A stretch of 64,000 nt of DNA from Candidatus Hydrogenedens sp. (lineage in GTDB: Bacteria; Hydrogenedentota; Hydrogenedentia; Hydrogenedentales; Hydrogenedentaceae), in assembly GCA_049968235.1 (NCBI GenBank), contig JBMFRC010000003.1, positions 192,001 to 256,000 on the forward strand, in the 5' to 3' direction. This document shows, in pieces, positions 1,579-50,853 of this stretch. The position numbers and the translations under genes were made by a program. Position 1 is the first letter of the stretch, and the number at the start of each line of letters is the position of its first letter. Below the pieces are notes generated by a model. The model had not been told where the DNA came from, ran no database searches, and saw only the letters and a program-made list of their open reading frames with translations.

Positions 1579-4401
1579 GTGTCAAGTATCTCAGGAGACA
1601 TACCTTCGTATATTGGTGCGTATCGCATAGATGAGCGAATCGCTGAAGGTGGTTTTGGTGTTGTGTATCGTGGTTTTGACCCGCGTTTGAAGCGGGAAGT
1701 TGCTATTAAGGTGCTTCATCCTCAGCATTCCTCTGAACCGGGGCGTGTATCTCGCTTCCTTCGTGAAGCACAAAGTGCGGCGCGACTGAACTATCCGGGT
1801 ATTGTCCAGATTTATGATATTGTTGAGGAAAATCAGCGATTGGCATTGGTGATGGAGTATGTTCATGGAAAAAATTTAGACCGATTTATTCGGGATAATC
1901 CGAGCCTATCCCTTGTCGAACGAATTGATATTGGAGTGCAGATAGCAGAAGCGTTATATTTAGCCCATCAGGCAGAGATTGTTCATCGGGATGTGAAGCC
2001 AGCGAATATACTTGTAGATGAGAATGGAGTTGTTAAGCTAACGGATTTCAATCTTGCTCGACTGAGAGATACATCATTAACCCCGCTAACAGGTGAACAT
2101 AATGTGTTGGGGACACCTGCGTATATGTCCCCGGAACAATGTTTGGGAAAGGAAGCATCTCCACAATCGGATATCTATTCTTTAGGTGTTGTCTTGTATT
2201 TTCTATTTACAGGAACATTACCTTTTGAGGCGGAAAATTATCTCGCCTTAATGAGGCAACATACCGATACTCCACCGACACCTGTCCGATTAATTAATCC
2301 TGACCTGCCTGTATCTCTTGAAAAACTTATTTCGCAATGTCTTTTAAAAAATCCGGAAGGAAGACCTGCTTCAGCCAAAGAAGTAGCAGAGCGTCTTCGC
2401 GAAATCAAAAATGAGTTGATAAAAAAAGAATCCGGTGAAATGCCTATTCTGGAACAAAAGACAATGATATTGTCGGACACACCGACACCTATAACACCGG
2501 AATATACCCTTCAAACCAAAGAGACAGCACAGGGATACCCTATAACGCCTACGGACAGTCAAAAAATACAATATCAATCACCCAGTCCAATACCATCACC
2601 ATCAACTCCCCAGGATTTTAGAACCCCCACAGGAACAATTCCGTCCCCGCTCTCTTCAGGAGCACATATTCCGTATGAAGTTAGTGGTGGAACTGTAAAC
2701 ACTACTCCTATGGGAATGCCGATGCAATTATCTCCTTCTGCCTCCACAAGCACGCCTATTCCCACCAATCCGACGAACATAGGAACTCCTTATACACCTA
2801 TACCGACCCCTTTCCCATATGAAATAGCACCAATTCCTTCGCAACATTCAAATTTTAAAATAAATTTCTTTATCCTGATACTTCTTCTCATTTCGCTAAT
2901 TTCTCTATGTTTAAGTGGATTCATCGTATATACCTATTACCATAATGGAGCCCTTCCGGGAAAAGGAACTACTTTAACATCAGAAACACATCAAGTTGTG
3001 CCCAAAACGGAGCCTGTGGACTATTCGAGGGTATTGTCGAATTTTATAAAAGAATATGATAATAATTACAAGTTTGAAGTAATTGAAGAAAAACAGGGCA
3101 ATGGCTATAAAGCATATATTCTTGATTTTACCTCGCAGAGTTGGCATCCCGAAAAGACAGCCCCCCCTGTATGGAGGCATTGGCTAACTGTAATTGTGCC
3201 CCAACAACGGGTAAAAGATGTCGGGATGCTTATCCTCACAAATGGTTTTTCGACATTAGAAACGCCTATGAGTGAAATCCCCCCCTATTTCATTTCGCTT
3301 GCAGTATCCTCAAAGTCTGTGGTATCCGTTCTGGAAGGTTTTCCACGGGATAATGTAGGAATTTACAAAACTCCAACACAAATCGTTCATTTAGAACCTG
3401 CTGAATTTGCCAGTTGGAGTTTCAAGCAATATTTTGAAACACACGAGACCAGTTGGATTGTTTTTTGTCCATTGGTCAAATCAATTGTTCGAGCCATGGA
3501 CGCTGTTCAGGAGTTATTGTTGAAAAATTTGCGTTCAGAAATACCCTTAAAAGAGTTTGTTCTATGTTCCGAAACACCTTTCTTCGTATCATGGTTGGTT
3601 CCACCGGTAGACAATCGTGTAATTGGGCTGGTTTCCATAAATACGACAGGTTTTCATCTGGAACAACAAATCAAACGTATGTTCATGGATGAAGTAGAAC
3701 TTCCGAAATTCTTTGCGGAGATAGATGATGCCGGGTTATTTCCCTTATTAGAAACGGAAGACGGAGAAAATTTATTAAAGATAATAGACCCGTATTATTA
3801 TCGAGAAGTATTAAAGATTCCGAAACTCATCATTTCTATGAACAATAATCAATGGCAGGATATGATTTTTCTTTCGGAGCAGGTTCTCTCCGAAATACCG
3901 GAACCTGTTAACTGGTTGGTTTGCCCGCAATTGCAATTATCACGCGAATATGCTTTCTTACCTCAGCAAACATTTTATAACTTCACAACATCATCCAATA
4001 CCAATCTCCGTGTATATGATTTTAAGGATACAATACAGGTATTTTATCAGCGGTTATTAGGACAAAAAAATATGCCTATTTTCCAATGGGATTTTTCCGC
4101 GAAGGGAGATTGTTATATTCGAGTGAGTGAAGAAATTATAGAGTGCCGTTTATGGTATTGTAGTAGCGATAGAAGAGGAACTCTACTTCAGTCCCAGAAC
4201 AAAAACTGGAAATATAAAATACTTTCTGAATCCGCAGAAGGGATTTATCGGTTCACAATACCTATCCAGCCCCAGCAATATACTGCGGTATTTGCAGAAG
4301 TCATTTTTCCCAGTTTAATGGGTATTCATTTCCCACTAACTACCGATATTCATATTATCCCACCTCAAAAAACGGAGGAAACTAACAGTATAAATCCATA
4401 A
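1579..4401 (+). CDS. Transmembrane Ser/Thr protein kinase with an extracytoplasmic PqaA-like (PhoPQ-activated pathogenicity-related family) domain that appears degenerate
   Basis: The N-terminus has Hanks kinase motifs: GGFGVVY, AIK, HRDVKPANIL, DFNLA and GTPAYMSPE. A Pro/Thr/Ser-rich linker follows, then one TM helix (FFILILLLISLISLCLSGFIVY). The ~470-aa C-terminal domain aligns to the 35037-36518 protein (TSQSW..W.HWLT..VP, K.[IV]VRAMD.VQE), but the GASKRGW segment is replaced by CSETPFF. GTG start. Confidence 0.85.
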   Translation: MSSISGDIPSYIGAYRIDERIAEGGFGVVYRGFDPRLKREVAIKVLHPQHSSEPGRVSRFLREAQSAARLNYPGIVQIYDIVEENQRLALVMEYVHGKNLDRFIRDNPSLSLVERIDIGVQIAEALYLAHQAEIVHRDVKPANILVDENGVVKLTDFNLARLRDTSLTPLTGEHNVLGTPAYMSPEQCLGKEASPQSDIYSLGVVLYFLFTGTLPFEAENYLALMRQHTDTPPTPVRLINPDLPVSLEKLISQCLLKNPEGRPASAKEVAERLREIKNELIKKESGEMPILEQKTMILSDTPTPITPEYTLQTKETAQGYPITPTDSQKIQYQSPSPIPSPSTPQDFRTPTGTIPSPLSSGAHIPYEVSGGTVNTTPMGMPMQLSPSASTSTPIPTNPTNIGTPYTPIPTPFPYEIAPIPSQHSNFKINFFILILLLISLISLCLSGFIVYTYYHNGALPGKGTTLTSETHQVVPKTEPVDYSRVLSNFIKEYDNNYKFEVIEEKQGNGYKAYILDFTSQSWHPEKTAPPVWRHWLTVIVPQQRVKDVGMLILTNGFSTLETPMSEIPPYFISLAVSSKSVVSVLEGFPRDNVGIYKTPTQIVHLEPAEFASWSFKQYFETHETSWIVFCPLVKSIVRAMDAVQELLLKNLRSEIPLKEFVLCSETPFFVSWLVPPVDNRVIGLVSINTTGFHLEQQIKRMFMDEVELPKFFAEIDDAGLFPLLETEDGENLLKIIDPYYYREVLKIPKLIISMNNNQWQDMIFLSEQVLSEIPEPVNWLVCPQLQLSREYAFLPQQTFYNFTTSSNTNLRVYDFKDTIQVFYQRLLGQKNMPIFQWDFSAKGDCYIRVSEEIIECRLWYCSSDRRGTLLQSQNKNWKYKILSESAEGIYRFTIPIQPQQYTAVFAEVIFPSLMGIHFPLTTDIHIIPPQKTEETNSINP

Positions 4402-4552: not shown

Positions 4553-7500
4553 TCAAGTATATTTAGCTTCGGGATGGAAAGAAATAACCGCAGCAGTAGT
4601 GCAAGTAGGATGAAATTGTCCGGATTCCAGTAAAGAAACACCGATGGGATCCCCTCCACCGAGTATATTCAGGATTGTTTCATTCATCATTATATTGGTC
4701 ATACCGGGATAGCCTGGCGACCAGCGTCTCCCATGTTCATGGGGTATATGGAGTAAGTCCTGTAGATGTCGATGGATATATTCCGCAGTATCTTCCGCAA
4801 TACGGTCTCCTAAACCTTGAAGAAATAAGGAGGATTCGCTGTTTCCCTGTTCTTTGAAATATGCAAGTCCCTGTTCTATCGATGGTCCTGCGGTGCAAAC
4901 CTGAATACCGATTACATCCCATTCATTATCACGAATAGAGCGGAAGTATTGAGAGCCCGAAACGAGGTCTTTTTCTCCGGCCCCAATGACCGTTGTAAAT
5001 TCAATCTTTCCTAATATTTCATCTAAATTCTCTGGATCATAAACAAGCACCCAATTATCATCGGATTTTGCGGGGAGTAGTCCATATATCGCCTGAGGTT
5101 CTATCCATTTTTTTTGTTCAGTAAGCGATGTCCATTTATTAAAGAGTAGTTCCAATTCTTCAATTATATGTCCCGCCTTCTCCTGACTGGTTTTCCCTCC
5201 AAATTTCCAGTTCAGTGAGAATAATGTCTGTTTATCTATATATTGCACGAATTTAGATAGAGGTATACGGAAAATACGGTGGCGGAATCGTGGAGATTTT
5301 GGGTATTGAGGGAAAGGAGTTGAAATGATACGACGGGGTAAGTTTAACAATTTCTGCTCTTCTTCTTGAAGACGCTTCGTTGCTTGAAGGTATCGCTGTT
5401 TTAAGGCTTCTCTATTTTGCTGGTATAGTTTATCGCGTGTTTCTGATGAAGTGGTTATCTGATTCATAATATTAACGCCGTCCATTGCTGTTCGGCAATA
5501 GAACACATCCGCCCGTATTTTACCTATATTGTCCTGACCCATCATTGCCACAAAGGCAGTATGCCGTGGCGTTACCGCAGCACCTCCTGTAAGGATAGGA
5601 ATATCCAGTCCTTGTTCTTTGCACATGCGTGCAACGGTTATCATATGATTTGCCGTTTGTACTAAAAGTGCAGACATACCAATGGCAGTGGCATTATGTT
5701 TTTTTGCCTGGTCAATAAATTCCTGTAAGGGCACCATAACTCCCAAATCAATGACTCTGTATCCGTAATTTTCAAGCAGTGTTTTGGTCAGGTCTTTACC
5801 TATGGAATGCACATCTTGATAGACCGTTCCTAAGACAATGGTTCCGCGGACGGTATCTTCCGATTGTTCTCGTTTTTCTCGTTTTGCTTTATAACGCAGG
5901 TAGCCCTCAATAAAGCCCATGGCTTGCTTCATGACATCTGCAGAACGGAGAAGATGGGGCAAGGACACTTCGCCTTTACCGAACAAATCGCCCAATTCTT
6001 GCATGGCGGACATCAAGTAGTCGCTGACAAAGTTTAGTGGCTCATGTTTTTCCAATGCTTTTGCGACTTGTGGGACAATTAAGTCCTGATATTCATATAT
6101 AAATCCTTGAAATTCAACTTGTCCTTTTGCATGTTGTTTTAAACCATCTTTTATCTTTTCGCAGATAGCCATCTCCAGAGGTAGTTCATCGTAGTTACTT
6201 TTTTTGACCGTCTCTTTTTGTTTTAGCGATAATGAGCGTTCCTCTAATATTGCGAAAGATTCCATATCTCGCTCAAAAATAATTTTTTTTGCGAGCCGGT
6301 AATCCTCTGGGTCAAGGTTTTCAACAAACACATAATGTTGTGGATTTAATATTGCGGAGTGGAGACCGCGTTTTCGTGCTTCATCTAAGAAAACCGATGT
6401 AAGTACCTTTCGCATGTGAGGCTTTTGGGCTAAGCCATTGGTTAGGTTTCCGACACCTATAATTGTGAAAGCATCCGGTAGTTCTTTTCGTACTTGTTCT
6501 ATTCCCTGTAAGGTTTCCAGAGCATAGTTTTGTGTTTCATTGGGCTCTGCTCCGATAGGAAAGACATTCACGTCAATAAACAAGCGGTGTGTCGGGACAC
6601 CGTAGTCTCTTGCTTTTTCAACAATTTGTTTTGCAAGTGTAATTTTTCGTTCTACTGTATCCGCAGGACCTTTGGAATCTGTGCAAAGAGCCACATAAAA
6701 ACAACCGAAATCCTTTGTAGGTGGTAAAAGGATGTCTAATTTGGTTTTTCCTGCTTCCACTTCTTCCAGAGATATGGAATTCAAAATAGGCACACCGGCG
6801 TAATGATGAACCGCTTCTATTAAAGCATCCGGCTGAAAAGAATCAATACACATTGCCCCTTTAATATCTGCACTAATCTGGTGGACCACTCGGGATAGGG
6901 TTTTAACAGTGTTTACATGGTTGGAATCCATGCAAACATCAATAATCTCGCATCCTAAATCGTTAATTTGTTCTCGTGCTACTTCTTCGAGAGCATCCAT
7001 ATCTATTCCATTATCTATTTCGACTGCTTCTCGGACTTTTTTAGAACCACGAACATTCAAACGTTCCCCTATACGAATAAGGGAGCGTTCTGCATCGAGA
7101 GGTACTGCATTTTGCACACCTGCAATGAAAATTGTATCAGAAGGTTTTCGGGGAGCAGGTTTTTTGTCTCTTAATCGTTCTACCAATTCTGCAATATGCT
7201 CCGGTCTTGTACCACAGCAACCGCCAACGATATTTAGTCCATACTCTAATGCGAGAGAACTTAAAATCTCCGCAAAAGGTTTCGGCTCAAACCGAAACAC
7301 TGTTTTCCCTCCTTCCGATTGGGGTAACCCCGCATTCGGTATCGTGCTTAAAGGGACATGTGCATAACGGGACATTTTCTCCACAGCGGTTTGCATCAGG
7401 TCAGGACCTATGGAACAATTAATACCAAAAACATCAACACCTAATGCTTCCATACTAACGATAGCGGAATGGATGTCTGTGTTAAAGATTTGCATACGGG

Positions 7501-17090: not shown

Positions 17091-18284
17091 ATGGAACATC
17101 TATATCTATCTGCATCAATCTGGTTATTTCTCGCCCTAACCTCCGCTATCATTGCATATTACTTGAAGGTTTCTATTGCTTTGATAGAGATTTGTGTAGG
17201 TATTATCGCAGGATATATAGCGACCCATTTTCTACAGACCGATTTGCTTAATAATAATGAAGAATGGTTAAAATTTCTTGCAGGTAGTGGAGCCATTTTT
17301 CTTACTTTCCTTGCAGGTGCTGAATTAGAGCCTACTGTGATTAAAAATAAATGGAAGGAGGTTCTTCTTATCGGCTTGATTGGATTTTTTTCTCCATTTG
17401 TCGGTTGTTCATTGATTGCTCATTTTTTGTTAGGGTGGGACCCGAGAGCCAGTTTGCTATGTGGTGTAGCCCTATCAACTACTTCAATGGCTGTGGTTTA
17501 TGCGGTGATGATTGACACAGGATTAAATGTTACAGAATTTGGGAAGGGCATATTAGGTTCTTGTTTTATCAATGATATCGGGACCGTTCTCGCTTTAGGA
17601 ATCATCTTTGCACCGTTTACCTACAAGACCTTTATCTTTATTACTATAACAATTATTTATCTTGTTCTTTTCCCGTTTTTTACCAACCATCTGACGAAGG
17701 TATATGGGAATCGAACTGCTGCAATTCGAACCAAATGGATTTCATTCACACTGTTCGGATTAGGTGCATTAGCACTATGGTCGGGCAATGAAGCAGTCTT
17801 GCCTGCCTATATAGCGGGTATGGTCCTTGCAGAATTCAGTCAAAGAAATCCTATATGGTTACGAAGATTACGAACTTTGACCATCGGATTTCTTACCCCA
17901 TTTTATTTTTTAAGGGCAGGCACACTTGTATCCGTTCCTGCATTAATTTCTGCACCATTTCTTATCGTTGCCCTATTAGGGGCAAAAGTAGTTTCCAAGA
18001 TATTTGGACTATACCCTTTTATCATACAATTTCGGAAAGAAAAAAATGAACGATGGTATTACACCTTGATGATGTCCACAGGACTCACCTTCGGAACTAT
18101 CTCTGCTCTATTTGGATATTCTCATAATATTATCAATACAGAACAATATTCCTATATAGTAATTGCTGTTATTGCAAGTGCTGTAATTCCAACTATGTTT
18201 GCATCCTACCTCTTCACACCGAGACATCTTTTATCTCAGAAAATTCATGTCTCAAAATCTATACATGAATTATCTGAGGAATAG
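17091..18284 (+). CDS. Cation:proton antiporter (Na+/H+ exchanger family, CPA1/CPA2)
   Basis: 397 aa, polytopic, with a GVALSTTSMAVVYAVMIDTG-type motif. Confidence 0.65.
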   Translation: MEHLYLSASIWLFLALTSAIIAYYLKVSIALIEICVGIIAGYIATHFLQTDLLNNNEEWLKFLAGSGAIFLTFLAGAELEPTVIKNKWKEVLLIGLIGFFSPFVGCSLIAHFLLGWDPRASLLCGVALSTTSMAVVYAVMIDTGLNVTEFGKGILGSCFINDIGTVLALGIIFAPFTYKTFIFITITIIYLVLFPFFTNHLTKVYGNRTAAIRTKWISFTLFGLGALALWSGNEAVLPAYIAGMVLAEFSQRNPIWLRRLRTLTIGFLTPFYFLRAGTLVSVPALISAPFLIVALLGAKVVSKIFGLYPFIIQFRKEKNERWYYTLMMSTGLTFGTISALFGYSHNIINTEQYSYIVIAVIASAVIPTMFASYLFTPRHLLSQKIHVSKSIHELSEE

Positions 18285-35036: not shown

Positions 35037-36518
35037 TTATTTGTTTAAAAATCCTTTGGGTAACTCAGCAGGTGGCTCATATTTATAAGGTTCAATATCG
35101 GGAACTATGCGAACAGGTGTTGTAAAGGTGAAAGTGGTATTATCCGGTCCGGGAAAACTCATTTCAATAAGGTATGCTTTCCATCCTTTTTCCGGAGGAT
35201 TTACTTTCCCAACATAGACGCCTTTTTCTTGCTCCGTTAGTTCCTTTGCCTGATAGGCTTTGCCAAGAACATTTAAACGGAAGTCCCGTGCTTCTGGATT
35301 GGTGGCTTCCCATAAAGTAACTTTACCGGGTTTATCTTTTGTCCTGACTACAATAGTACAATCATCTGGAAATTCCCAGGAATATTGCGGAAGAGGTTTT
35401 TTCATAACAATAGCCTTGTAGAATGCAGATACACTGCTGACAACTTCTGGTTTAAGTCCATGACCTGTATTCGGCACATATCGGATATATGTAGGTGCAG
35501 GTAGGTCTGCAAGATAAAATTTCCATGAATCTGGCAGGAAAAATTCATCACCTGCGGAATTAATGATGAATTTGGGCATGGTTAGTCTATTAAGGTAACT
35601 ATACGGGTCAACAATCTTCAACATGGCTGAAAATTCAGGAGTGGTTAACCAGTCCATAATATTCATTTCTACATAATCATCTATTGCGGGAGCCCAACCT
35701 CCATATACCGCATAGTGATGTTTAAATGAGGGGACTAAATTTAGTAAATCAATAACCATGGGTACACATGCCACTACTCGTTTATCTACGATAGTAGTTG
35801 TCCATGTGGTCCAGCCGCGTTTGGAAGCACCTGCTACTACAAATTCATTTACTTTCACTTTTCCGCCTTCTTTACTTGCACAAAATTCCTGCACGGTATC
35901 CATAGCCCGAACGACCGCTTTTGTCATCGGCATACGTGTTAACCATTCCGCTTCTCCTGTTTTCAAATATTTATCCCAATTATATGCGATAATAGCGTCT
36001 TCGCTACGCTTTCTGTCGTTATCATTTGCAAAGACCAGAGGTTGATTCGGTATTTGCTTTATTTCCGCCACTACAGTTTGCACATCTTTGGCTATTGTTC
36101 GTAATAAGGGACTAGAAGATGTCGGCGGTTCATCACTATTTCCCCCACCGGAAATAATAAGTAATGCGGATGAATACTTCACCTTTTTAGGAACAACAAT
36201 TGTTAGCCAGTGTGTCCAGATGGGACGGTCAACTTCTTCAGGAGAACGCCAACTCTGGGAAGTGAGATGAATGTAATAAATAGTGAATTTGTCCGCTTGT
36301 TCTGTTTTTACAAGTTTATAACTGTAATTGGGGTCAGGTTTATAAACATAGGTATCCAGGGGGCCCGGATTTTTTGTTTCTCGGGCATTTGTAGAAGCAA
36401 TAACCTTTTGTGATTCTGATATAGGTGCTTTTGTCGCACAGCCAATAACAGAAGTAACAAGCAAGATAGACAGTAATATGGACAATAATTTCTTACTATT
36501 TAAAATCCGTTGTATCAT
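35037..36518 (-). CDS. PqaA-family (PhoPQ-activated pathogenicity-related protein, PF10142-like) lipoprotein; paralogue of the kinase ectodomain
   Basis: Lipobox VIGC. Conserved LTSQSWRSPEEVDRPIWTHWLTIVVP, GASKRGW (G-x-S-x-x-G nucleophile-elbow-like) and KAVVRAMDTVQE. It aligns along its length with residues ~490-900 of the 1579-4401 product. Confidence 0.6.
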   Translation of the reverse strand: MIQRILNSKKLLSILLSILLVTSVIGCATKAPISESQKVIASTNARETKNPGPLDTYVYKPDPNYSYKLVKTEQADKFTIYYIHLTSQSWRSPEEVDRPIWTHWLTIVVPKKVKYSSALLIISGGGNSDEPPTSSSPLLRTIAKDVQTVVAEIKQIPNQPLVFANDNDRKRSEDAIIAYNWDKYLKTGEAEWLTRMPMTKAVVRAMDTVQEFCASKEGGKVKVNEFVVAGASKRGWTTWTTTIVDKRVVACVPMVIDLLNLVPSFKHHYAVYGGWAPAIDDYVEMNIMDWLTTPEFSAMLKIVDPYSYLNRLTMPKFIINSAGDEFFLPDSWKFYLADLPAPTYIRYVPNTGHGLKPEVVSSVSAFYKAIVMKKPLPQYSWEFPDDCTIVVRTKDKPGKVTLWEATNPEARDFRLNVLGKAYQAKELTEQEKGVYVGKVNPPEKGWKAYLIEMSFPGPDNTTFTFTTPVRIVPDIEPYKYEPPAELPKGFLNK

Positions 36519-43763: not shown

Positions 43764-45008
43764 ATGAGTGAAAAGTTTCGTTTAACACGGAGACAATTTA
43801 ACAAAGCGGCAGCGCTTGCAACCTTTGCAGTGATTTCCAGGAACATGGATGCAGCAGAAACGAACAGCGGGACCTTGAAAATTGGTTTAATCGGTTGTGG
43901 GGGGCGAGGTTTTGGTGCCGTAAAGGATTGCATGGAAGGGAATGACAATATAAAAATCGTGGCACTGGCAGATGTTTTTGAAGACCGACTTAAAGAATGC
44001 AGGAAAAAATTGGAATCTATGCAGGGCAGGATGTATAAAGGGAAAGTGGAAATTGATGATGGACATTGCTTTGTTGGTCTGGATGCGTATAAAAAGATTT
44101 TGGAGACCGATATTAATGTCGTTATTCATGCAACACCGCCTTATGCCCGTCCTATGCATATTGAAGCGGTAATTGATGCGGGAAAACATGTATTCACAGA
44201 AAAACCTTTAGCGGTTGACCCTGCGGGTATCCGTCGATTTATCAAAACTGCTCAAAAGGCAAAAGAAAAGAATCTGTGTCTGCATACAGGCACACAAAGA
44301 CGCTCCAGCAATGCATACCGTGAGACGGTTAAGAAGATACAGGATGGTGCTATTGGTGATATTATTGCAGCGCGTGTCTATTGGAATGGTGACCTACCGT
44401 TCTCTCATGACCGTAAACCCGGCTGGAACGATTTGGAATATCGCCTGCGTAACTGGTATAACCAGATATGGACCTGTGGAGATAATATCGTGGAACAACA
44501 TATACATAATATCGATATTATCAACTGGATAATGGGTACCCATCCCGTGAAGGTAGTGGGGTCTGGAGGCAGAGCATGGAAACCGCGTGAAGAGAAATAT
44601 GGAGACCTTTGGGACCATTTCGAATGCGATTATGAATATCCAAATGGTGTGCATATGTTCAGTTTCTCACGCCATTGGAATAATTCGAAGAACGATGTCT
44701 TCGAACAAGTATTTGGCACAAAAGGAAAGAGCATGTGCAATGATATGGGTAAAGATACCATAAATCCGTATGTTCAGGAGCATATTGACCTTATTAAAGC
44801 CATTCGTGGGGAAGCCCCTTATGTGAATACAGGTATTGAATGTGCAGAAAGCACAATGACTGCTATCATGGGTCGTATGTCTGCCTACACAGGACAGGAA
44901 TTAACATGGGATGATGCATTAAACGCAGATTTAAGTATTGTTCCGGAAGATTTAGACTGGAGCAAATCTTACCCGATAGGTCCTATCCCTGTTCCTGGTA
45001 AAGCATAA
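43764..45008 (+). CDS. TAT-secreted Gfo/Idh/MocA family oxidoreductase
   Basis: TAT motif LTRRQFNKAAALA. GLIGCGGRG Rossmann motif. It is a paralogue of the 30353-31768 gene. Confidence 0.8.
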   Translation: MSEKFRLTRRQFNKAAALATFAVISRNMDAAETNSGTLKIGLIGCGGRGFGAVKDCMEGNDNIKIVALADVFEDRLKECRKKLESMQGRMYKGKVEIDDGHCFVGLDAYKKILETDINVVIHATPPYARPMHIEAVIDAGKHVFTEKPLAVDPAGIRRFIKTAQKAKEKNLCLHTGTQRRSSNAYRETVKKIQDGAIGDIIAARVYWNGDLPFSHDRKPGWNDLEYRLRNWYNQIWTCGDNIVEQHIHNIDIINWIMGTHPVKVVGSGGRAWKPREEKYGDLWDHFECDYEYPNGVHMFSFSRHWNNSKNDVFEQVFGTKGKSMCNDMGKDTINPYVQEHIDLIKAIRGEAPYVNTGIECAESTMTAIMGRMSAYTGQELTWDDALNADLSIVPEDLDWSKSYPIGPIPVPGKA

Positions 45009-45019
45009 TTGTAGATAAT

Positions 45020-45053
45020 ATGGGCGGGTTAGATGTTTTATCTGCCCGCCCAT
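45020..45053. terminator. Imperfect 14-bp hairpin between convergent genes
   Basis: atgggcgggttagat-gtttt-atctgcccgcccat. There is no strong U-tract. Confidence 0.3.
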
Positions 45054-45093
45054 GTCAATATATACCGCTCGTTATTACTCCTATGTATTTTCA

Positions 45094-46755
45094 TTAAATG
45101 CGGTCAAAGATTTTTTCGATGACTTCAATAATATGAGTTGGGCAGGCGTAAACACCTTTTACAGGTAGGGTAAGGATTCTTTCTACTTCTTGTAATAAAT
45201 AAGTATTATCCGGTTCCGTTGTTGATAGTAAAACTTGAGTTGTGTCGTTGATTCGTAAGGGGAGTAATAGATATTTCATACAAAAAGTGTAATCAAGTAA
45301 ATATGCTTGTTCGATGTTTACATGCTTTTCATTTATAAATAATAAGGGGATATTTTTTTGTAGGGACAACGTCTGAAATAGAACAATTTCATCAATCCAT
45401 CCCTGTTCTAATAATAAGGTTCCTAATCGGCAATATCGTTTATCTTTCTGTAAAATAAGCATTTCTTCCAATTGGGTATTTGTAATGAAGTTTGCTTTAA
45501 CGAGCAATTCTCCTAATTTTAAATAAGGTTTTTCTGCCTCTTGAAGTGCCATAACCAAACGGATGTAAGTTTCTTCATATTTTCTTTTTCCTTCATAATT
45601 CTGTTCGTCTCCCAACAGCATCAATTGCTCCTGCAATGTTTCTACCTGATATTGCCAGTATTTCACGGATTCAGATAGTTCTTCATTGCGTTTCATAGAA
45701 ACTCTGTATTCCTGCTGGAAACGCTCTTTTTCTTTTTTCAGTCCTTCGATTGTTCGCAAGAGTTCCTTACATTGTTCAATAATTTCTTGATGTTTTTGCT
45801 CCAATTTTTGCTGTTGTTCTTCCTGTTTCTTTTGTCCCAATATTGCCTTTGCCATCTCTGTGGATAATTTTTGATTTTCTTTGAGAAGTACTTCTTTTTC
45901 TTTTATCAATTTATCTAATAATTGCTGTTGCGTATCAATGTAAGTTTTTAATGTTGTGATATTCGCCTGTAATTGTGCAATTTGCGTGTTAAGTTGGTTG
46001 TTTTCAAATTGAGATTTTTTAATTTCATCTTCTTTGTCTTTCAATAGCAACTTTTGTTTTGACAATGTATCTTCTAACATCTGTTCTGTACTTTCTAATT
46101 CTGCTATCCGAACTAGGGCATTGCTTAAATCTACAGTTGTAGTCTGTATTTTTTTTATAAGGTTGGAAATTATTTCCTCCGATTCAGCATGACGGGTTGC
46201 TATTTCTATATTTTCCTGTTCCTTTTGATGAAGTTTTTCCTGTAATTCCCTTACCTTTGTTTTTTCTGCATGGTGGTCCACCTGGGTAGAATATAATTGC
46301 TGTTCCAATGCCTTTGAGGATAGTTCCGTTTCCTGCAATTGTTTTTTAAGGAGTTGTATTTCTTCATTTAATAAACTTTTTTGCTGTTCAAATCTTTTTT
46401 TATCCTCTTGAAGGTTCTGTATTACCTGCTGTAATTGCTCGTTTTGTTTTTGTTCCTGCAGTAGTTCCGATTTTAATTCCATTAAATCCAGAAGAAAATT
46501 ATTCAATTGTTCGCTAAGGAAAGAAAGTGTTGATGAAGATGTGTCTTTTTCTTGTTTATCAGCAGGTATTGTTGGATATGTATGATAAATCTTCGATTTT
46601 TTCTTTTCTTCTCCATAACCACTTCCGCCTAACGGTGAGTAAATAATATGAAACTTCGGAGTAAAGATGGATTGCAAAAGGAAGGTGAGGTCTTTTTTTA
46701 GATAAGGAAGATATGTCTGGCTTCTTCTAACGAAATATTTAGTAAATGAGTTCAT
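45094..46755 (-). CDS. Long coiled-coil protein with a C-terminal GspE-N/MshEN-type domain (putative c-di-GMP receptor)
   Basis: Residues ~75-420 are a Q/E/K-rich heptad coiled coil. The C-terminal ~130 aa has the duplicated MshEN motif: KLGELLVKANFITNTQLEEMLILQ and RLGTLLLEQGWIDEIVLFQTLSLQ (RLGxxLLxxGWIxxxxLxxxLxxQ). Confidence 0.65.
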   Translation of the reverse strand: MNSFTKYFVRRSQTYLPYLKKDLTFLLQSIFTPKFHIIYSPLGGSGYGEEKKKSKIYHTYPTIPADKQEKDTSSSTLSFLSEQLNNFLLDLMELKSELLQEQKQNEQLQQVIQNLQEDKKRFEQQKSLLNEEIQLLKKQLQETELSSKALEQQLYSTQVDHHAEKTKVRELQEKLHQKEQENIEIATRHAESEEIISNLIKKIQTTTVDLSNALVRIAELESTEQMLEDTLSKQKLLLKDKEDEIKKSQFENNQLNTQIAQLQANITTLKTYIDTQQQLLDKLIKEKEVLLKENQKLSTEMAKAILGQKKQEEQQQKLEQKHQEIIEQCKELLRTIEGLKKEKERFQQEYRVSMKRNEELSESVKYWQYQVETLQEQLMLLGDEQNYEGKRKYEETYIRLVMALQEAEKPYLKLGELLVKANFITNTQLEEMLILQKDKRYCRLGTLLLEQGWIDEIVLFQTLSLQKNIPLLFINEKHVNIEQAYLLDYTFCMKYLLLPLRINDTTQVLLSTTEPDNTYLLQEVERILTLPVKGVYACPTHIIEVIEKIFDRI

Positions 46756-47693
46756 GGTTTTACAGGATTTATAAGTGCCTCTATCAGACTGTTTTCAAAT
46801 TGTTCTCTATTTTTCCATGTTAAGGCACAACGCACGGGTCTTCCGTTATCATCCGGATAGGTCTTTCCTTCTTTATCAATGGACAGGTTCAAGGTTTTAA
46901 TTTCTACAGCCTCTTCGGACCATGTGCAATAACCTGCTAATGTATCATATAACACACTACTTTCATCTTTAGGATAATGTTTGCGATTTGTCCAGATGTT
47001 ATAGTTTTCAATGACTACTTTTGCGAATGGGGATTGTGATTCCTCAATCTTTCGATAGTTATCTCCTTTTAGAATGATAGTCCCGCAGGTATCTAATGGG
47101 ATAATGGTAATCTCCCAAGGTGCGGAAAAGACCTTTCGGGCGCTTTCCACATCTCTACAAATATTGTATTCGCAATCTCTACTGTTCTTCCCGCCATATC
47201 CGATATAAACACTTCCTGCCATAGAAACAATTCGTGCTTTTTGAGCAATATCCGGTGCCATTTCTAAAGCCTTAGCAATATTCATCATAGGACCTATAAC
47301 ACAAAGTATGGTGGGTTCCTGAGCACTCCGTATCATTTCAATCATAGTTTTTACACCCTCTTCATGGATTTTCCCTTTATAATTGTCCAATGAATATTTT
47401 TCTATCCATGATAACTGATTAATATCTTTATTACTTGTTTTTACCCCTTTACCTATGGGAATATCTGTCCTTTCGACAGTTTCCAGCATTCGTGCCACCA
47501 GTTTTACCTTAGTTTCTGTGTTATCGCATGCAGTTACAATAAGTTTCAGATCTACTTTCCCCGCACCTAAAAGATGCATCAATGCCCATGTATCGTCAAT
47601 ATCGTCACCAATGTCCGTATCGAGAATAATTTGAGGCAGAGACATTGCACTGCATGAAAATAGCCATAGTAGGAGAAATAGATATTTATTCAT
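46752..47693 (-). CDS. Secreted nucleoside hydrolase (IUNH family)
   Basis: Signal peptide followed by ILDTDIGDDIDDTWAL (DxDxxxDD Ca2+/ribose-binding motif). It overlaps the downstream coiled-coil gene by 4 nt. Confidence 0.8.
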   Translation of the reverse strand: MNKYLFLLLWLFSCSAMSLPQIILDTDIGDDIDDTWALMHLLGAGKVDLKLIVTACDNTETKVKLVARMLETVERTDIPIGKGVKTSNKDINQLSWIEKYSLDNYKGKIHEEGVKTMIEMIRSAQEPTILCVIGPMMNIAKALEMAPDIAQKARIVSMAGSVYIGYGGKNSRDCEYNICRDVESARKVFSAPWEITIIPLDTCGTIILKGDNYRKIEESQSPFAKVVIENYNIWTNRKHYPKDESSVLYDTLAGYCTWSEEAVEIKTLNLSIDKEGKTYPDDNGRPVRCALTWKNREQFENSLIEALINPVKP

Positions 47694-47709
47694 ACGAAAT
47701 CCCTTATAG

Positions 47710-48666
47710 TTATGGGGTTATTAATTTTCCAGCCAGTAATAACGCACCTACAAGAACCACCTGTTCCCCTAATTCACAAGGAGATATTTCATACTGGTTG
47801 CGAAATGGAGTAAATACTAATCGGTCAACGACCGCACGAATTCGGTTTAAAAGCACATCCCCCATTAATGATACTCCCCCTCCTAACGCAATTTTTTCAG
47901 GATGGAATAATGTAATAACATTGGAGATAGCAATACCAACCGATTGAGCAATACGGTCTAATTCTTCACAGGCAAAAGAGTCTTCCTCCTCCGCACACTT
48001 ACCTAAAAGGACACAGGTCATAAGGTTGAGATTCCCTCCTGTTTTTGCCCACAAAGAACTTTTTTGTGGCACATAATTTTCCGTTTGTAATCTTCGTTCA
48101 ATGCTCCAGCCCGAACAGATATTTTCCAGTTTATTGTAGGCACCCCGTTCTTCTTGTGTCCAATCGGGAACATAAGTATGACCTATTTCTCCAGCGCCCA
48201 ATCCCTGTCCATCATGCAATTTCCCATCTATAATAAGGGCTCCGCCAATGCCACTGCCAATATTCATATAAAAAAAGTTTCGTGTCCCTTTACCTCTGCC
48301 ACAAACAAATTCAGCCCAGCCTGCAGAATTTGCATCATTTGCAAGAACTGTCGGAATGGAAAAGGTATCTTCGAACCATTGTCGGAGAGGGAAACCTTGC
48401 CAGCCCGTGATTTGATGTGAAATCAGAACTTTCCCCTCAACACTATCAACAGGTCCACCAAAGCCTATTCCAATACTTTGCACTCGTTGTCCTTCTTGCT
48501 CCGCTTTTTGAATTTGATTTTTTGTCGTTTCTGTTACCCAATCTAAAATCTCGCGGGACTGCCAATCTTTTTGAACCGTTCCACGCTCTAAATGATAAAT
48601 ATTCCCTTTTTCATCACCTAAAACAACCTGCAATTTTGTTCCACCAATTTCAATCCCTATCAACAT
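47710..48666 (-). CDS. ROK family sugar kinase (glucokinase/NagK-like)
   Basis: MLIGIEIGGTKLQVVLGD N-terminal ATP motif. ROK signature GIGGGVS-like (GIGFGGPVD...GSGIGGALIIDG). Confidence 0.8.
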   Translation of the reverse strand: MLIGIEIGGTKLQVVLGDEKGNIYHLERGTVQKDWQSREILDWVTETTKNQIQKAEQEGQRVQSIGIGFGGPVDSVEGKVLISHQITGWQGFPLRQWFEDTFSIPTVLANDANSAGWAEFVCGRGKGTRNFFYMNIGSGIGGALIIDGKLHDGQGLGAGEIGHTYVPDWTQEERGAYNKLENICSGWSIERRLQTENYVPQKSSLWAKTGGNLNLMTCVLLGKCAEEEDSFACEELDRIAQSVGIAISNVITLFHPEKIALGGGVSLMGDVLLNRIRAVVDRLVFTPFRNQYEISPCELGEQVVLVGALLLAGKLITP

Positions 48667-48684
48667 TATGACTTCCTCTTTTCT

Positions 48685-49728
48685 TTATGAACTCCGGTGT
48701 TTGTCTTGTGAAGAACAATGCAGTTTATTATTTAAAGTATCCGTGGACCTCTTCTTCGCACAAAGAGACGGAATGGATTGTTCCACCTGTGGATTTTTAC
48801 CTTTCTTCTCAAAATATTCGCGTATTACCTTTTGAGAAAAACTGGGCTCATATTTATTATAAATTTCAAATCGTTTTTGCACTTCGGGTAGATAAAATTT
48901 GTTGCAATATTTCTTTTCCAGGATATTCAATACAATATGTTTTCGCATTGCCCAGAAATGGGAATTATTATATGACTCGTCAAATCCGGGGGTTATATAA
49001 TTTCTCAAATCTATCTGCCGAACCAATTTCCATTTTCCATCTATCCGCTCAATATAGGGAGGTTTCCCTCCACATAGGTCTCGTGCTAAGCAAAATCCTT
49101 GAAAATTTGCCTCCAAATCACCATGAGAGAATATCCCATCAACCAATTTTCCGACGAGATTATCTTCATGCACAATTCCCCACATTACAACTTTTTTCAT
49201 GGCTTCCTCCTCAGTGTATCCTTCCCGCAAATGACGGCAATATCTCTGGTAGTATCTTCTGCCAAAGCCCAAAAAGTGGCACATTTTATCTATACCGAAA
49301 TATACATCTCCTACGCGTATCGTTCGAGCCATAGGTAAAAAGAAATAGGGAAAAGCAAATCCCCGGTGTATACTCATTTTCAAATAAGTTTGCTTGCCTA
49401 TACTAAGGTCGGGGAATTTTTCAATCTGTGGGTCATGGCGTATGAATGTGCGTAAACGCGACCAGCCGAGGAATTGAAAGAAATGGTAATAAATGGCAAT
49501 GGTTAATTCCTCCGGGTCTTCAATTGGCTTTGTCCGTTTATTGACCTCATCAAGATATTTCGATAAAGTCTCATTAAAATAGCAATTCAGTTCATCTGCA
49601 GAATCTTTCAATTCAATACCCCAGGTTAGATATTGGTCTGTTTCTGCACTATAAGAAACTGATAAAATAAACAAGTTTAGAATGGCAATAGAGGAAATAA
49701 AAACAGATTTTTTCATAACACCACCCAA
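48685..49728 (-). CDS. Secreted hypothetical protein
   Basis: Signal peptide. No family was recognised. His- and Asp-rich segments (CHFLGFG...HEDN...SHGDLEAN) could indicate a metal hydrolase. Confidence 0.35.
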   Translation of the reverse strand: MGGVMKKSVFISSIAILNLFILSVSYSAETDQYLTWGIELKDSADELNCYFNETLSKYLDEVNKRTKPIEDPEELTIAIYYHFFQFLGWSRLRTFIRHDPQIEKFPDLSIGKQTYLKMSIHRGFAFPYFFLPMARTIRVGDVYFGIDKMCHFLGFGRRYYQRYCRHLREGYTEEEAMKKVVMWGIVHEDNLVGKLVDGIFSHGDLEANFQGFCLARDLCGGKPPYIERIDGKWKLVRQIDLRNYITPGFDESYNNSHFWAMRKHIVLNILEKKYCNKFYLPEVQKRFEIYNKYEPSFSQKVIREYFEKKGKNPQVEQSIPSLCAKKRSTDTLNNKLHCSSQDKHRSS

Positions 49729-50006
49729 AATCTTCCATATAAATTAAATTTTTTCAAGTAAAATATTTTAACAAAATAAAAGCAGATTAACAATTTGTTA
49801 AATTACCCGTTATAAATCACATAAAAAATGTGCCGAAGTGATGGTCCCCGAAAAAGTTCCCACAGATTATTTTATAGGTATTGTAGTTTTTTGTAAATCA
49901 GCATTGGATAAACTTATAGAACTATGTCCGTATACATGTAGAAATAAATTAGAAAAAATGGTTACAAATAAGCCTTCACACTTTTTATTTTGAGAGGTAG
50001 GGACAA

Positions 50007-50453
50007 ATGATTTCATATATATCCAATTGCAATGTTTTTGAAAGTTGTGCAGATGCCCTAGTTAATCCTGAAAATTGTAAGGGCGTAATGGGTAAAGGGA
50101 TTGCCCTCGAATTTAAGAAACGTTTCCCTGAAATTATGCAGATTTATAAGGAAGTTTATAATAATAAAAAACTGGCTCCGGGGATTCTTCTATTCTTTCG
50201 TGTTGAATTTCAACTCGATTTGTGTGAGGTGAAGAAACCTGCTTTGATTCTTTTCCTAACGAAAAACCGTTGGAGAGATAAATCAAAAATGGAATGGATA
50301 GAAAAGGGGCTTATTTTCTTAAAAGAACATTATAAAGAATGGGAATTAAATTCTGTCACAATGCCTCAAATTGGTTGCGGTTTAGGCGGATTATCTGGGA
50401 GGCAAGTAAAAGTTGTATCGAAAAATATTTTGCAGAGTAACCTTTACAGATAG
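50007..50453 (+). CDS. Standalone macro domain protein, Macro_2 (DarG/TARG1-like ADP-ribosyl glycohydrolase) type
   Basis: ADALVNPENCKGVMGKGIALEFKKRFP matches the ALVN.VNC.GVMGKGIA..FK..FP signature of DarG-type macro domains. It is 148 aa. Confidence 0.5.
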   Translation: MISYISNCNVFESCADALVNPENCKGVMGKGIALEFKKRFPEIMQIYKEVYNNKKLAPGILLFFRVEFQLDLCEVKKPALILFLTKNRWRDKSKMEWIEKGLIFLKEHYKEWELNSVTMPQIGCGLGGLSGRQVKVVSKNILQSNLYR

Positions 50454-50526: not shown

Positions 50527-50610
50527 TGCCGGAGAGGGGACTTGAACCCCTATGCCCTTGCGGGCACATGGACCTGAACCATGCGTGTCTGCCAATTCCA
50601 CCACTCCGGC
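50527..50610 (-). tRNA. tRNA-Leu (anticodon CAG)
   Basis: Cloverleaf read by hand: acceptor GCCGGAG/CTCCGGC, anticodon stem CATGG/CCATG with loop TTCAGGT, long variable arm, T-loop TTCAAGT, discriminator A. CCA is not encoded. Confidence 0.85.
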
Positions 50611-50777: not shown

Positions 50778-50853
50778 GGACGGGTAGCTCAGGTGGAAGA
50801 GCATCGGACTTTTAATCCGGTGGCCGCGGGTTCGAGTCCCGCCCCGTCTACCA
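50778..50853 (+). tRNA. tRNA-Lys (anticodon UUU)
   Basis: Acceptor GGACGGG/CCCGTCT with a G-U at position 1, D-stem GCTC/GAGC, anticodon stem TCGGA/TCCGG with loop CTTTTAA, T-loop TTCGAGT, discriminator A. CCA is encoded. Confidence 0.85.

Follow-up and report, generated by a model that had tools for sequence, protein, structure and literature searches.

What a receptor domain for cyclic di-GMP (c-di-GMP) could be doing when it is attached to no enzyme is the question raised by a 553-residue protein encoded in Candidatus Hydrogenedens sp., on positions 192,001 to 256,000 of contig JBMFRC010000003.1. This whole stretch of 64,000 nucleotides (nt) is referred to below as the window. The protein carries an MshEN module at its extreme C-terminus, behind a long coiled coil. 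It is read here as a cytoplasmic, non-enzymatic, c-di-GMP-responsive rod or scaffold with the MshEN module at its end, a reading to which a probability of about 0.55 is given. Among protein receptors of c-di-GMP, MshEN belongs to the two most widespread, and to our knowledge its characterised outputs are enzymes, namely pilus and secretion ATPases and a glycosyltransferase.

The C-terminal module was recognised by profile and by pairwise comparison. Pfam PF05157 (MshEN) matches residues 469-551 with 35.3 bits against a gathering score of 23.1 (E=1.1e-8), bearing out the C-terminal MshEN domain proposed in an earlier note on this DNA that was made without database searches. The 53-position NCBIfam model NF053729 ('c-di-GMP_motif') matches residues 413-466 with 41.6 bits against a cutoff of 38. 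Phmmer against the PDB returned PilF (8.5e-16), Geobacter PilB (9.6e-10) and MshE 5HTL (1.9e-8), the PilB and PilF alignments running to residue ~553. By each of these sequence tests residues 413-553 are a complete module of the MshEN/GSPII kind. In the AlphaFold2 (AF2) model the N-terminal subdomain, MshEN_N, forms four helices (414-420, 426-438, 444-451 and 456-466) with a predicted local distance difference test score (pLDDT) of about 60-82. A word-indexed homology search with the isolated module gave one partial self-match only and was uninformative. The T2SSE ATPase that might follow MshEN is lacking, as the protein ends two residues past the PF05157 match, and membership in the MshE/PilB/GspE ATPases was rejected since no T2SSE ATPase domain (Walker A/B) comes after the module.

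Upstream of the module the protein is predicted to be one long rod. Residues 77-400 contain no Pro in 324 residues and are made up of 16% E, 15% L, 15% Q and 12% K. Their hydrophobic periodicity is strongest at 3.5, and a single heptad register runs from ~71 to ~392 (z=5.9 against shuffles). AF2 places rod helices at 76-154, 169-378 and 388-406 (79, 210 and 19 residues), and the register carries across the sole break at residues 155-168. Because the helices are unequal in length and the register crosses that break, the rod is probably extended, and probably parallel, instead of an SMC-like hairpin. It spans ~325 residues, most likely as a parallel homodimer, and would be ~48 nm long if two-stranded, at 0.148 nm per residue. 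Its length is tightly held, with zero indel columns over residues 77-400 among nine close sequences (59-81% identity) and just 3 against the distant homologue P0026 (28% identical). Coil segment 77-154 is the best-conserved part among close orthologues (79%), which suggests specific contacts along the rod. Pro-free, in one register and matching no ATPase family, the segment agrees with the long heptad coiled coil without a secretion ATPase of the earlier note. The N-terminal domain of unknown type in that note did not stand. Residues 1-75 are not a conserved domain, because their mean pairwise identity is 41% (67-79% for folded segments), three of eight orthologues lack the first ~41 residues (P0007-P0009, though these keep the overlap with the upstream gene described below) and pLDDT falls under 50 for residues 26-75, which are predicted to be disordered. 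The 553-residue protein has no signal peptide, and apart from MshEN neither an enzymatic nor any other domain was found in it by Pfam or NCBIfam scans.

Whether the module can still sense its ligand depends on two short motifs. Wang et al. 2016 defined the MshEN motif as RLGxx(h)(h)xxG(h)(h)xxxxLxxxLxxQ, present in two tandem 24-residue copies with a short spacer, in which the key positions are R1, L2, G3, G10 (at the turn), L17, L21 and Q24. In MshE, substitution of G11 or G40, the Gly3 of the two motifs, abolishes binding, mutation of R9 shifts affinity less than 5-fold, position 10 is Gly and 'required for the turn', and ligand binding stabilises the four-helix bundle (Wang et al. 2016). 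Both motifs named in the earlier note are present in the window protein; motif II is an exact consensus match as claimed, and motif I deviates, with K at position 1 and N (N422) at position 10. The spacer between the two motifs is 6 residues and not 5. Within motif I, K413, L414, G415, L433 and Q436 are invariant in the nine close sequences, and position 10, N in the window protein, is G, D or E in orthologues. Within motif II, L444, G445 and Q466 are invariant in close orthologues, and R443 is replaced by K in P0003 and by P in P0009. Variation at position 1 has precedent in PilF, where GSPII-B, with K at position 1 of motif I and L at position 1 of motif II, binds c-di-GMP at 6 nM, and GSPII-C, with P at position 1 of motif II, binds at ~460 nM. 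As both of these bind, K/R/P variation at position 1 is compatible with binding.

A wider survey aligned 40 diverse coiled-coil MshEN proteins against 15 PilB-type controls. G3 is present in 40/40 in both motifs and position 2 is hydrophobic in 40/40 in both; Q24 is kept in 37/40 (motif I) and 38/40 (motif II), and L17 and L21 are about 95% hydrophobic. G10 is looser, found in 29/40 and 31/40 respectively and otherwise E, D or N, once S or R. Overall, conservation of the contact positions equals that of the controls. The mutation tolerance of the RLGxx site that the earlier note had raised as a concern is thus confined to position 1, where PilF tolerates it; L2 and G3 are invariant in orthologues. 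The spacer is 6 residues in coiled-coil MshEN proteins (7 in one) and 5 in MshE and all 15 controls. Geobacter PilB (5TSG) aligns with a longer spacer still, so that spacer length varies among accepted members, and the 6-residue form may be a family signature. Judged from these alignments, the ligand site of the window protein looks intact and c-di-GMP binding is predicted.

The foremost competing explanation, which is judged unlikely, is that the MshEN module is a ligand-blind docking domain, on the model of the homologous GspE N1 domain docking onto GspL, and that the protein is a constitutive structural coiled coil on a secretion, pilus or flagellar platform. Several observations lean this way or weigh against a c-di-GMP-responsive rod. 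Non-binding MshEN/GSPII domains are documented in XpsE and in PilF GSPII-A, the latter having near-consensus motifs that do not bind c-di-GMP and are not rescued by restoring the consensus. N10 of motif I breaks the [GAS] rule even in its relaxed form, the spacer exceeds that of MshE by one residue, and P0026 has L, not Q, at position 24 of motif II. The window has no pilus, flagellar or c-di-GMP-turnover genes, no GGDEF signature in its six-frame translation and no c-di-GMP riboswitch over its whole length. Elsewhere, FliD/FliS genes lie upstream of the corresponding gene block in loci L003-L005, and a FlgN-like gene lies downstream of the MshEN gene in L010 and L011. To these are added low AF2 confidence over residues 472-553 of the second subdomain, MshEN_C, and an oligomeric state and strand orientation that are predicted; among 34 loci, beyond the low-G+C (low-GC) clade, no recurrent neighbour gives a clue to a partner or function. 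The docking model in turn meets the difficulty that the XpsE non-binder has many key substitutions (G11V, L29R, R38G, G40L, L54H, L58C and Q61V). In contrast, the 40 divergent coiled-coil proteins retain G3, L17, L21 and Q24 in both motifs as well as PilB-type ATPases do, a pattern not easily explained unless the ligand site is under selection. MshEN_N is also the segment best conserved against P0026 (48%, against 27-30% elsewhere), and the flagellar neighbours occur in single lineages only.

If the rod is c-di-GMP-responsive, the MshEN module would most likely bind one c-di-GMP per chain, as in MshE, PilF GSPII-B and NfrB. Binding at the terminal four-helix bundle would then alter how the MshEN end, or the whole rod, meets partners or self-assembles. 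Because no catalytic domain is attached, the output would lie in changed protein-protein contacts, self-assembly or localisation of the rod, i.e. in a c-di-GMP-switched scaffold or tether. The c-di-GMP-controlled structural or scaffolding protein suggested in the earlier note is accordingly a reasonable, sequence-based reading of an MshEN module on a long coiled coil with no ATPase.

Known systems resemble the protein in part. MshE (V. cholerae, 5HTL) and PilF GSPII-B (T. thermophilus, 8PDK/8PKZ) have the same two-subdomain module with two tandem 24-residue motifs, of which the window module keeps L2, G3, L17, L21 and Q24, and the K at position 1 of motif I is shared with the 6-nM binder GSPII-B. 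Unlike theirs, which is N-terminal, the window module is C-terminal and precedes no T2SSE ATPase; the spacer and N at position 10 of motif I also set it apart. A C-terminal MshEN is shared with NfrB, the c-di-GMP-activated glycosyltransferase of E. coli, whose NCBIfam models match residues 409-544 (E about 1e-11 to 1e-13). The partner domain of NfrB is a membrane GT2 enzyme, whereas that of the window protein is a soluble, non-catalytic coiled coil, and orthology was rejected at 44-48 bits against NfrB cutoffs of 537 and 1170. The NfrB architecture was catalogued by Wang et al. as the only one with a C-terminal MshEN; their fusions comprise ATPases, glycosyltransferases, REC, HD-GYP, CheA, CheX, cyclases, kinases, HEAT and peptidase M23, and no coiled coil. 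Their supplement includes two non-ATPase MshEN proteins implicated in motility or development, PA3740 of P. aeruginosa and FrgA of M. xanthus. By description these are precedents for non-enzymatic MshEN outputs; by description, too, they are set apart, having MshEN-xT2SSE_N1 alone or an N-terminal MshEN-UNK-HEAT arrangement and no long coiled coil. A looser likeness may be drawn to Caulobacter TipF, with a degenerate EAL domain that binds c-di-GMP, and to Myxococcus FrzS/AglZ, with a receiver and a coiled coil. In these, as might be the case here, a sensory domain on a long coiled coil steers localisation or recruitment of motility machinery; the EAL and receiver domains are unrelated to MshEN and no homology is implied.

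The architecture extends well beyond the window. A word-indexed search returned nine full-length homologues, which are 59-81% identical and of which two bear the name Candidatus Hydrogenedens sp. When the C-terminal module was run exhaustively by HMMER against 1.84 billion representatives, only one cluster at 50% identity scored below 1e-30, and there were 3 carriers among 185,579 species genomes, including Ca. Hydrogenedens terephthalaticus. Close relatives are confined to Candidatus Hydrogenedens. Among remoter matches are many proteins whose long coiled coil is capped at the extreme C-terminus by a single MshEN, and those carrying organism names are Hydrogenedentota. A metagenome scan with scripted classification, the loci found earlier included, gave at least 34 distinct metagenomic loci for this pairing, with rods of about 130-1130 residues. 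All are cleanly separate from PilB/GspE ATPases, which have ~415-460 residues after the domain. Relatives carry the database names 'hypothetical', 'PilB' and, at JGI (Joint Genome Institute), 'chromosome segregation ATPase'; the 'PilB' names are misannotations. In a domain tree the split of coiled-coil MshEN from PilB has 38% bootstrap, and mean distances are saturated (1.97 from low-GC to high-GC, 2.00 from low-GC to PilB). Architecture, the 6-residue spacer and phylum speak for a single family of the low-GC and high-GC groups, with sequence distance non-deciding. Other c-di-GMP machinery exists in the phylum, where L006 has a PilZ gene and L010 an FHA-GAF-HD_5 gene. Neither literature on Hydrogenedentes and c-di-GMP nor literature at large, full-text searches included, yielded a description of the coiled-coil MshEN architecture.

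Individual members show further variation. In the high-GC group P0050, P0053 and P0074 have an extra internal MshEN_N mid-rod. Most such high-GC proteins (P0056, P0074, P0075, P0082, P0113 and P0053) have in common a conserved N-terminal head motif, approximately D-[IL]-x-x-[RK]-L-x-x-x-I-x-x-W-x-x-E-[VI]-x-x-A-[QH]-x-x-L-x-x-Q-I, and this head might serve for interaction. In L017 (Ca. Hydrogenedens terephthalaticus AWNW01000050.1) a tblastn match at 5345..7017 spans residues 1-553 of the rod protein, and the longest open reading frame (ORF) begins at 5626 with 463 residues, so that in this draft single-cell assembly the gene seems to be broken; the cause could be a sequencing error, a frameshift or decay to a pseudogene. 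In L016 (3953..7052), P0107 (382 residues) is preceded by an overlapping 666-residue pure coiled-coil ORF, and the pair is probably one coiled-coil MshEN gene of ~1000 residues split by a frameshift or a gene-calling artefact.

In the window the rod gene is the last of four co-directional genes in a compact block, after those for an exported protein of 347 residues, a ROK-family protein and an IUNH-family protein (Table 1). The three minus-strand ORFs and the 4-nt overlap of the earlier note are where it placed them, and its IUNH and ROK assignments agree with the family matches given below; the fourth gene, the first of the block, had been overlooked. Gaps of 18 nt and 16 nt are followed by an ATGA overlap at the IUNH/MshEN junction, read from the sequence as AAA CCA TGA ACT. 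An 85-nt gap separates the MshEN gene from a convergent GFO/IDH/MocA oxidoreductase gene downstream. This gap holds a G+C-rich hairpin that is likely a bidirectional terminator closing the operon, as judged from its sequence; the consensus scan missed it because its loop exceeds 8 nt. Upstream of the 347-residue gene, promoter-like sites are no more numerous than in shuffles, so the candidate promoter is weak. Co-transcription of the four genes is likely. In the Hydrogenedens clade the rod gene would have become the last cistron of a four-gene operon, translationally coupled to the IUNH gene.

Table 1. Features of the rod protein, its gene block and related loci (window positions unless a locus is named; strand as read)
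Feature	Position	Strand	Basis or remark
Coiled-coil + C-terminal MshEN gene, 553 aa	45094..46755	-	ORF list; stop codon 45094..45096
Variable N-terminal tail, residues 1-75	46531..46755	-	Low identity, low pLDDT, partial absence
Continuous heptad coiled-coil rod, residues 76-406 (predicted)	45538..46530	-	Composition, periodicity, AF2 helices
MshEN_N four-helix bundle, residues 413-466, including 6-residue spacer 437-442	45358..45519	-	AF2, conservation
c-di-GMP motif I, residues 413-436, KLGELLVKANFITNTQLEEMLILQ	45448..45519	-	NF053729 match above cutoff
c-di-GMP motif II, residues 443-466, RLGTLLLEQGWIDEIVLFQTLSLQ	45358..45429	-	Fits Wang et al. relaxed regular expression
MshEN_C (T2SSE_N1/GSPII alpha/beta subdomain), residues 467-553	45097..45357	-	PF05157, PilB/PilF alignments
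IUNH-family hydrolase-like gene, 313 aa	46752..47693	-	Stop overlaps MshEN gene start by 4 nt
ROK-family sugar kinase-like gene, 318 aa	47710..48666	-	16 nt upstream of IUNH
First gene of block, exported 347-aa protein	48685..49728	-	18 nt upstream of ROK
Candidate operon promoter, sigma-70-like hexamer pairs	49765..49897	-	Upstream of 347-aa gene; consensus scan only
G+C-rich 9-bp hairpin, ATGGGCGGG, 16-nt loop, CCCGCCCAT	45020..45053		Inside convergent gap; read from sequence
FlgN-like gene	L010 5252..5746; L011 3603..4097		PF05130; downstream of high-GC coiled-coil MshEN gene

The block is kept in four contexts, those of the window, L001, L003-L005 and L017; in L001-L005, as well as in the window, the IUNH and coiled-coil genes share the ATGA overlap. 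What flanks the block varies: L001 has DarT-Macro, L003 has FliD-FliS, and downstream there are radical SAM or methyltransferase genes. L015 encodes an MshEN protein of only 28% identity, yet the gene directly upstream, across an 84-nt gap, is still an IUNH gene (63% identical), and a convergent GFO/IDH/MocA gene lies downstream, just like that of the window. This makes the IUNH linkage an old one within the low-GC clade, and it is found in that clade only (the window and 4 of 34 loci). In the other 30 of the 34 distinct loci, the coiled-coil MshEN gene never neighbours an IUNH, ROK or 347-aa-family gene, and any other neighbour recurs in a few loci at most. The linkage to IUNH and ROK is lineage-specific and not a property of the architecture. 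The hydrolase/ROK linkage for which the earlier note proposed to check homologues is accordingly found in L001, L003-L005 and L017, and as IUNH in L015, and is missing from the 30 loci outside the low-GC clade.

Flagellar genes occur beside the family in a few places. The FlgN-like chaperone gene directly downstream of the MshEN gene in L010/L011 matches PF05130 at E=1.4e-6, just under the gathering score. In one Hydrogenedens lineage FliD and FliS (L003-L005, 1898..4110) stand upstream of the block of four genes. Each of these neighbours is found in a single lineage only and is a hint at most, so no flagellar link was adopted.

The IUNH protein matches PF01156 with 123 bits against 34.2 (E=2.3e-35). 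Its N-terminal hydrophobic, signal-peptide-like segment is conserved in orthologues and the Cys within it is not; because the Cys is unconserved, the N-terminus is, on sequence grounds, a Sec-type signal and not a lipobox. Its Asp cluster, DTDIGDDIDD, has a 2-residue insertion relative to DCDPGH--DD of RihA, and in 'LYDTLA' a Tyr stands, by eye, in place of the catalytic His of canonical IU-NH enzymes. It lies far below the cutoffs of the RihA, RihB, RihC and UriH equivalog models and may not be a classical nucleoside hydrolase. The ROK protein matches PF00480 with 188.9 bits (E=1.9e-55), its best PDB relative being the S. griseus glucokinase 3VGK. It retains the ExGH motif (EIGH), and the zinc cysteines of CxCGxxGC are gone ('llCgCgsqgC' of 3VGK aligns to 'tqeergaynk'). 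It is under the cutoff of every listed NCBIfam model, the best being the ROK glucokinase subfamily (173 against 260 bits). The 347-residue protein is exported and belongs to a conserved family that no Pfam model matches and for which no structural relative has been solved; fold searches with it gave nothing significant. PADLOC matched none of the four operon proteins, and a defence-system reading of the operon was rejected on that account.

These neighbours give rise to another explanation, slightly less probable again than ligand-blind docking, by which the rod protein is a c-di-GMP-responsive regulator or scaffold of its own operon's module (ROK, IUNH-like and 347-residue proteins), acting on sugar, nucleoside or envelope glycan. 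The tight spacing and ATGA overlap fit such a unit, as do the persistence of the block in the window, L001, L003-L005 and L017 despite differing flanks, the IUNH gene directly upstream in L015 though the MshEN protein there is 28% identical, and the proximity of a 347-aa-family gene to a ROK gene in a distant genome of 7.9 Mb. That family usually occurs without ROK or IUNH, however, and the other 30 loci speak against a functional unit. The IUNH and 347-residue proteins carry signal peptides and the MshEN protein carries none, which places them in different compartments. In L015 an 84-nt gap replaces the overlap, and conservation differs sharply within the same genome pair (IUNH 63%, rod protein 28%). 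Of the link to nucleoside and sugar salvage in the earlier note there survives an IUNH neighbour kept in the low-GC clade; with 30 of 34 loci lacking it and the compartments differing, the tie is weak. A third explanation, an SMC-like 'chromosome segregation ATPase', is very improbable and was rejected: the JGI names of relatives and weak TIGR02168/TIGR02169 matches over the coil favour it, but these reach 32.8 and 18.2 bits where the cutoffs are 567 and 729, and cover the coil only, no Walker A/B head, hinge or ATPase domain was detected, and helices of such unequal length allow no symmetric fold-back hairpin, so that the similarity is compositional.

The remainder of the window is chromosomal housekeeping, including genes for methionine synthase, GAPDH/PGK, PNPase and ribosomal protein S1, as well as acetolactate synthase-like proteins and ABC exporters. 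No Rfam elements at E<=1 lie around the operon within 44900..50100. Divergent from the operon is an orphan DarG-type macrodomain gene (50007..50453, plus strand; PADLOC DarG, E=3e-42). At the equivalent place in L001 a Macro gene 68% identical to the window copy stands beside a DarT toxin gene; DarT is missing from the window and the window Macro copy diverges past residue ~134, so by sequence this looks like a decayed DarTG toxin-antitoxin locus. Two tRNA genes (50527..50610, minus strand; 50778..50850, plus strand) separate the Macro gene from a gene of class-II glutamine amidotransferase-like type. Further away, a fluoride riboswitch (RF01734, 16986..17046, plus strand; 57.1 bits, E=3.4e-13) lies directly upstream of an Na+/H+ exchanger-family gene (17091..18284). 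The PhoPQ-activated pathogenicity-related domain (PF10142) occurs in two proteins (1579..4401, plus strand; 35037..36518, minus strand), one of which has an N-terminal Ser/Thr protein kinase domain fused to it, an unusual combination.

The pairing of a coiled coil with a terminal MshEN is undescribed, and it extends a known sensor family modestly. Wide distribution, conservation of the ligand site and fixed rod length lend it more interest than a single isolated fusion would have, and the clade-constant rod length hints at a spacing function. More speculatively, and with a good deal less confidence than is placed in the c-di-GMP-responsive rod itself, coiled-coil MshEN proteins might form an unrecognised class of non-enzymatic effectors, lineage-fixed rigid rods acting as c-di-GMP-gated rulers or tethers at the envelope or a motility machine and co-expressed in Hydrogenedens with an exported module that includes the 347-residue protein. 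For now the practical value is modest, though misleading database names of relatives ('PilB', 'chromosome segregation ATPase') could be corrected. If the c-di-GMP-responsive rod is true, it would add a purely structural or scaffolding output to the MshEN receptor class and would give a first handle on c-di-GMP signalling in the uncultured phylum Hydrogenedentota.

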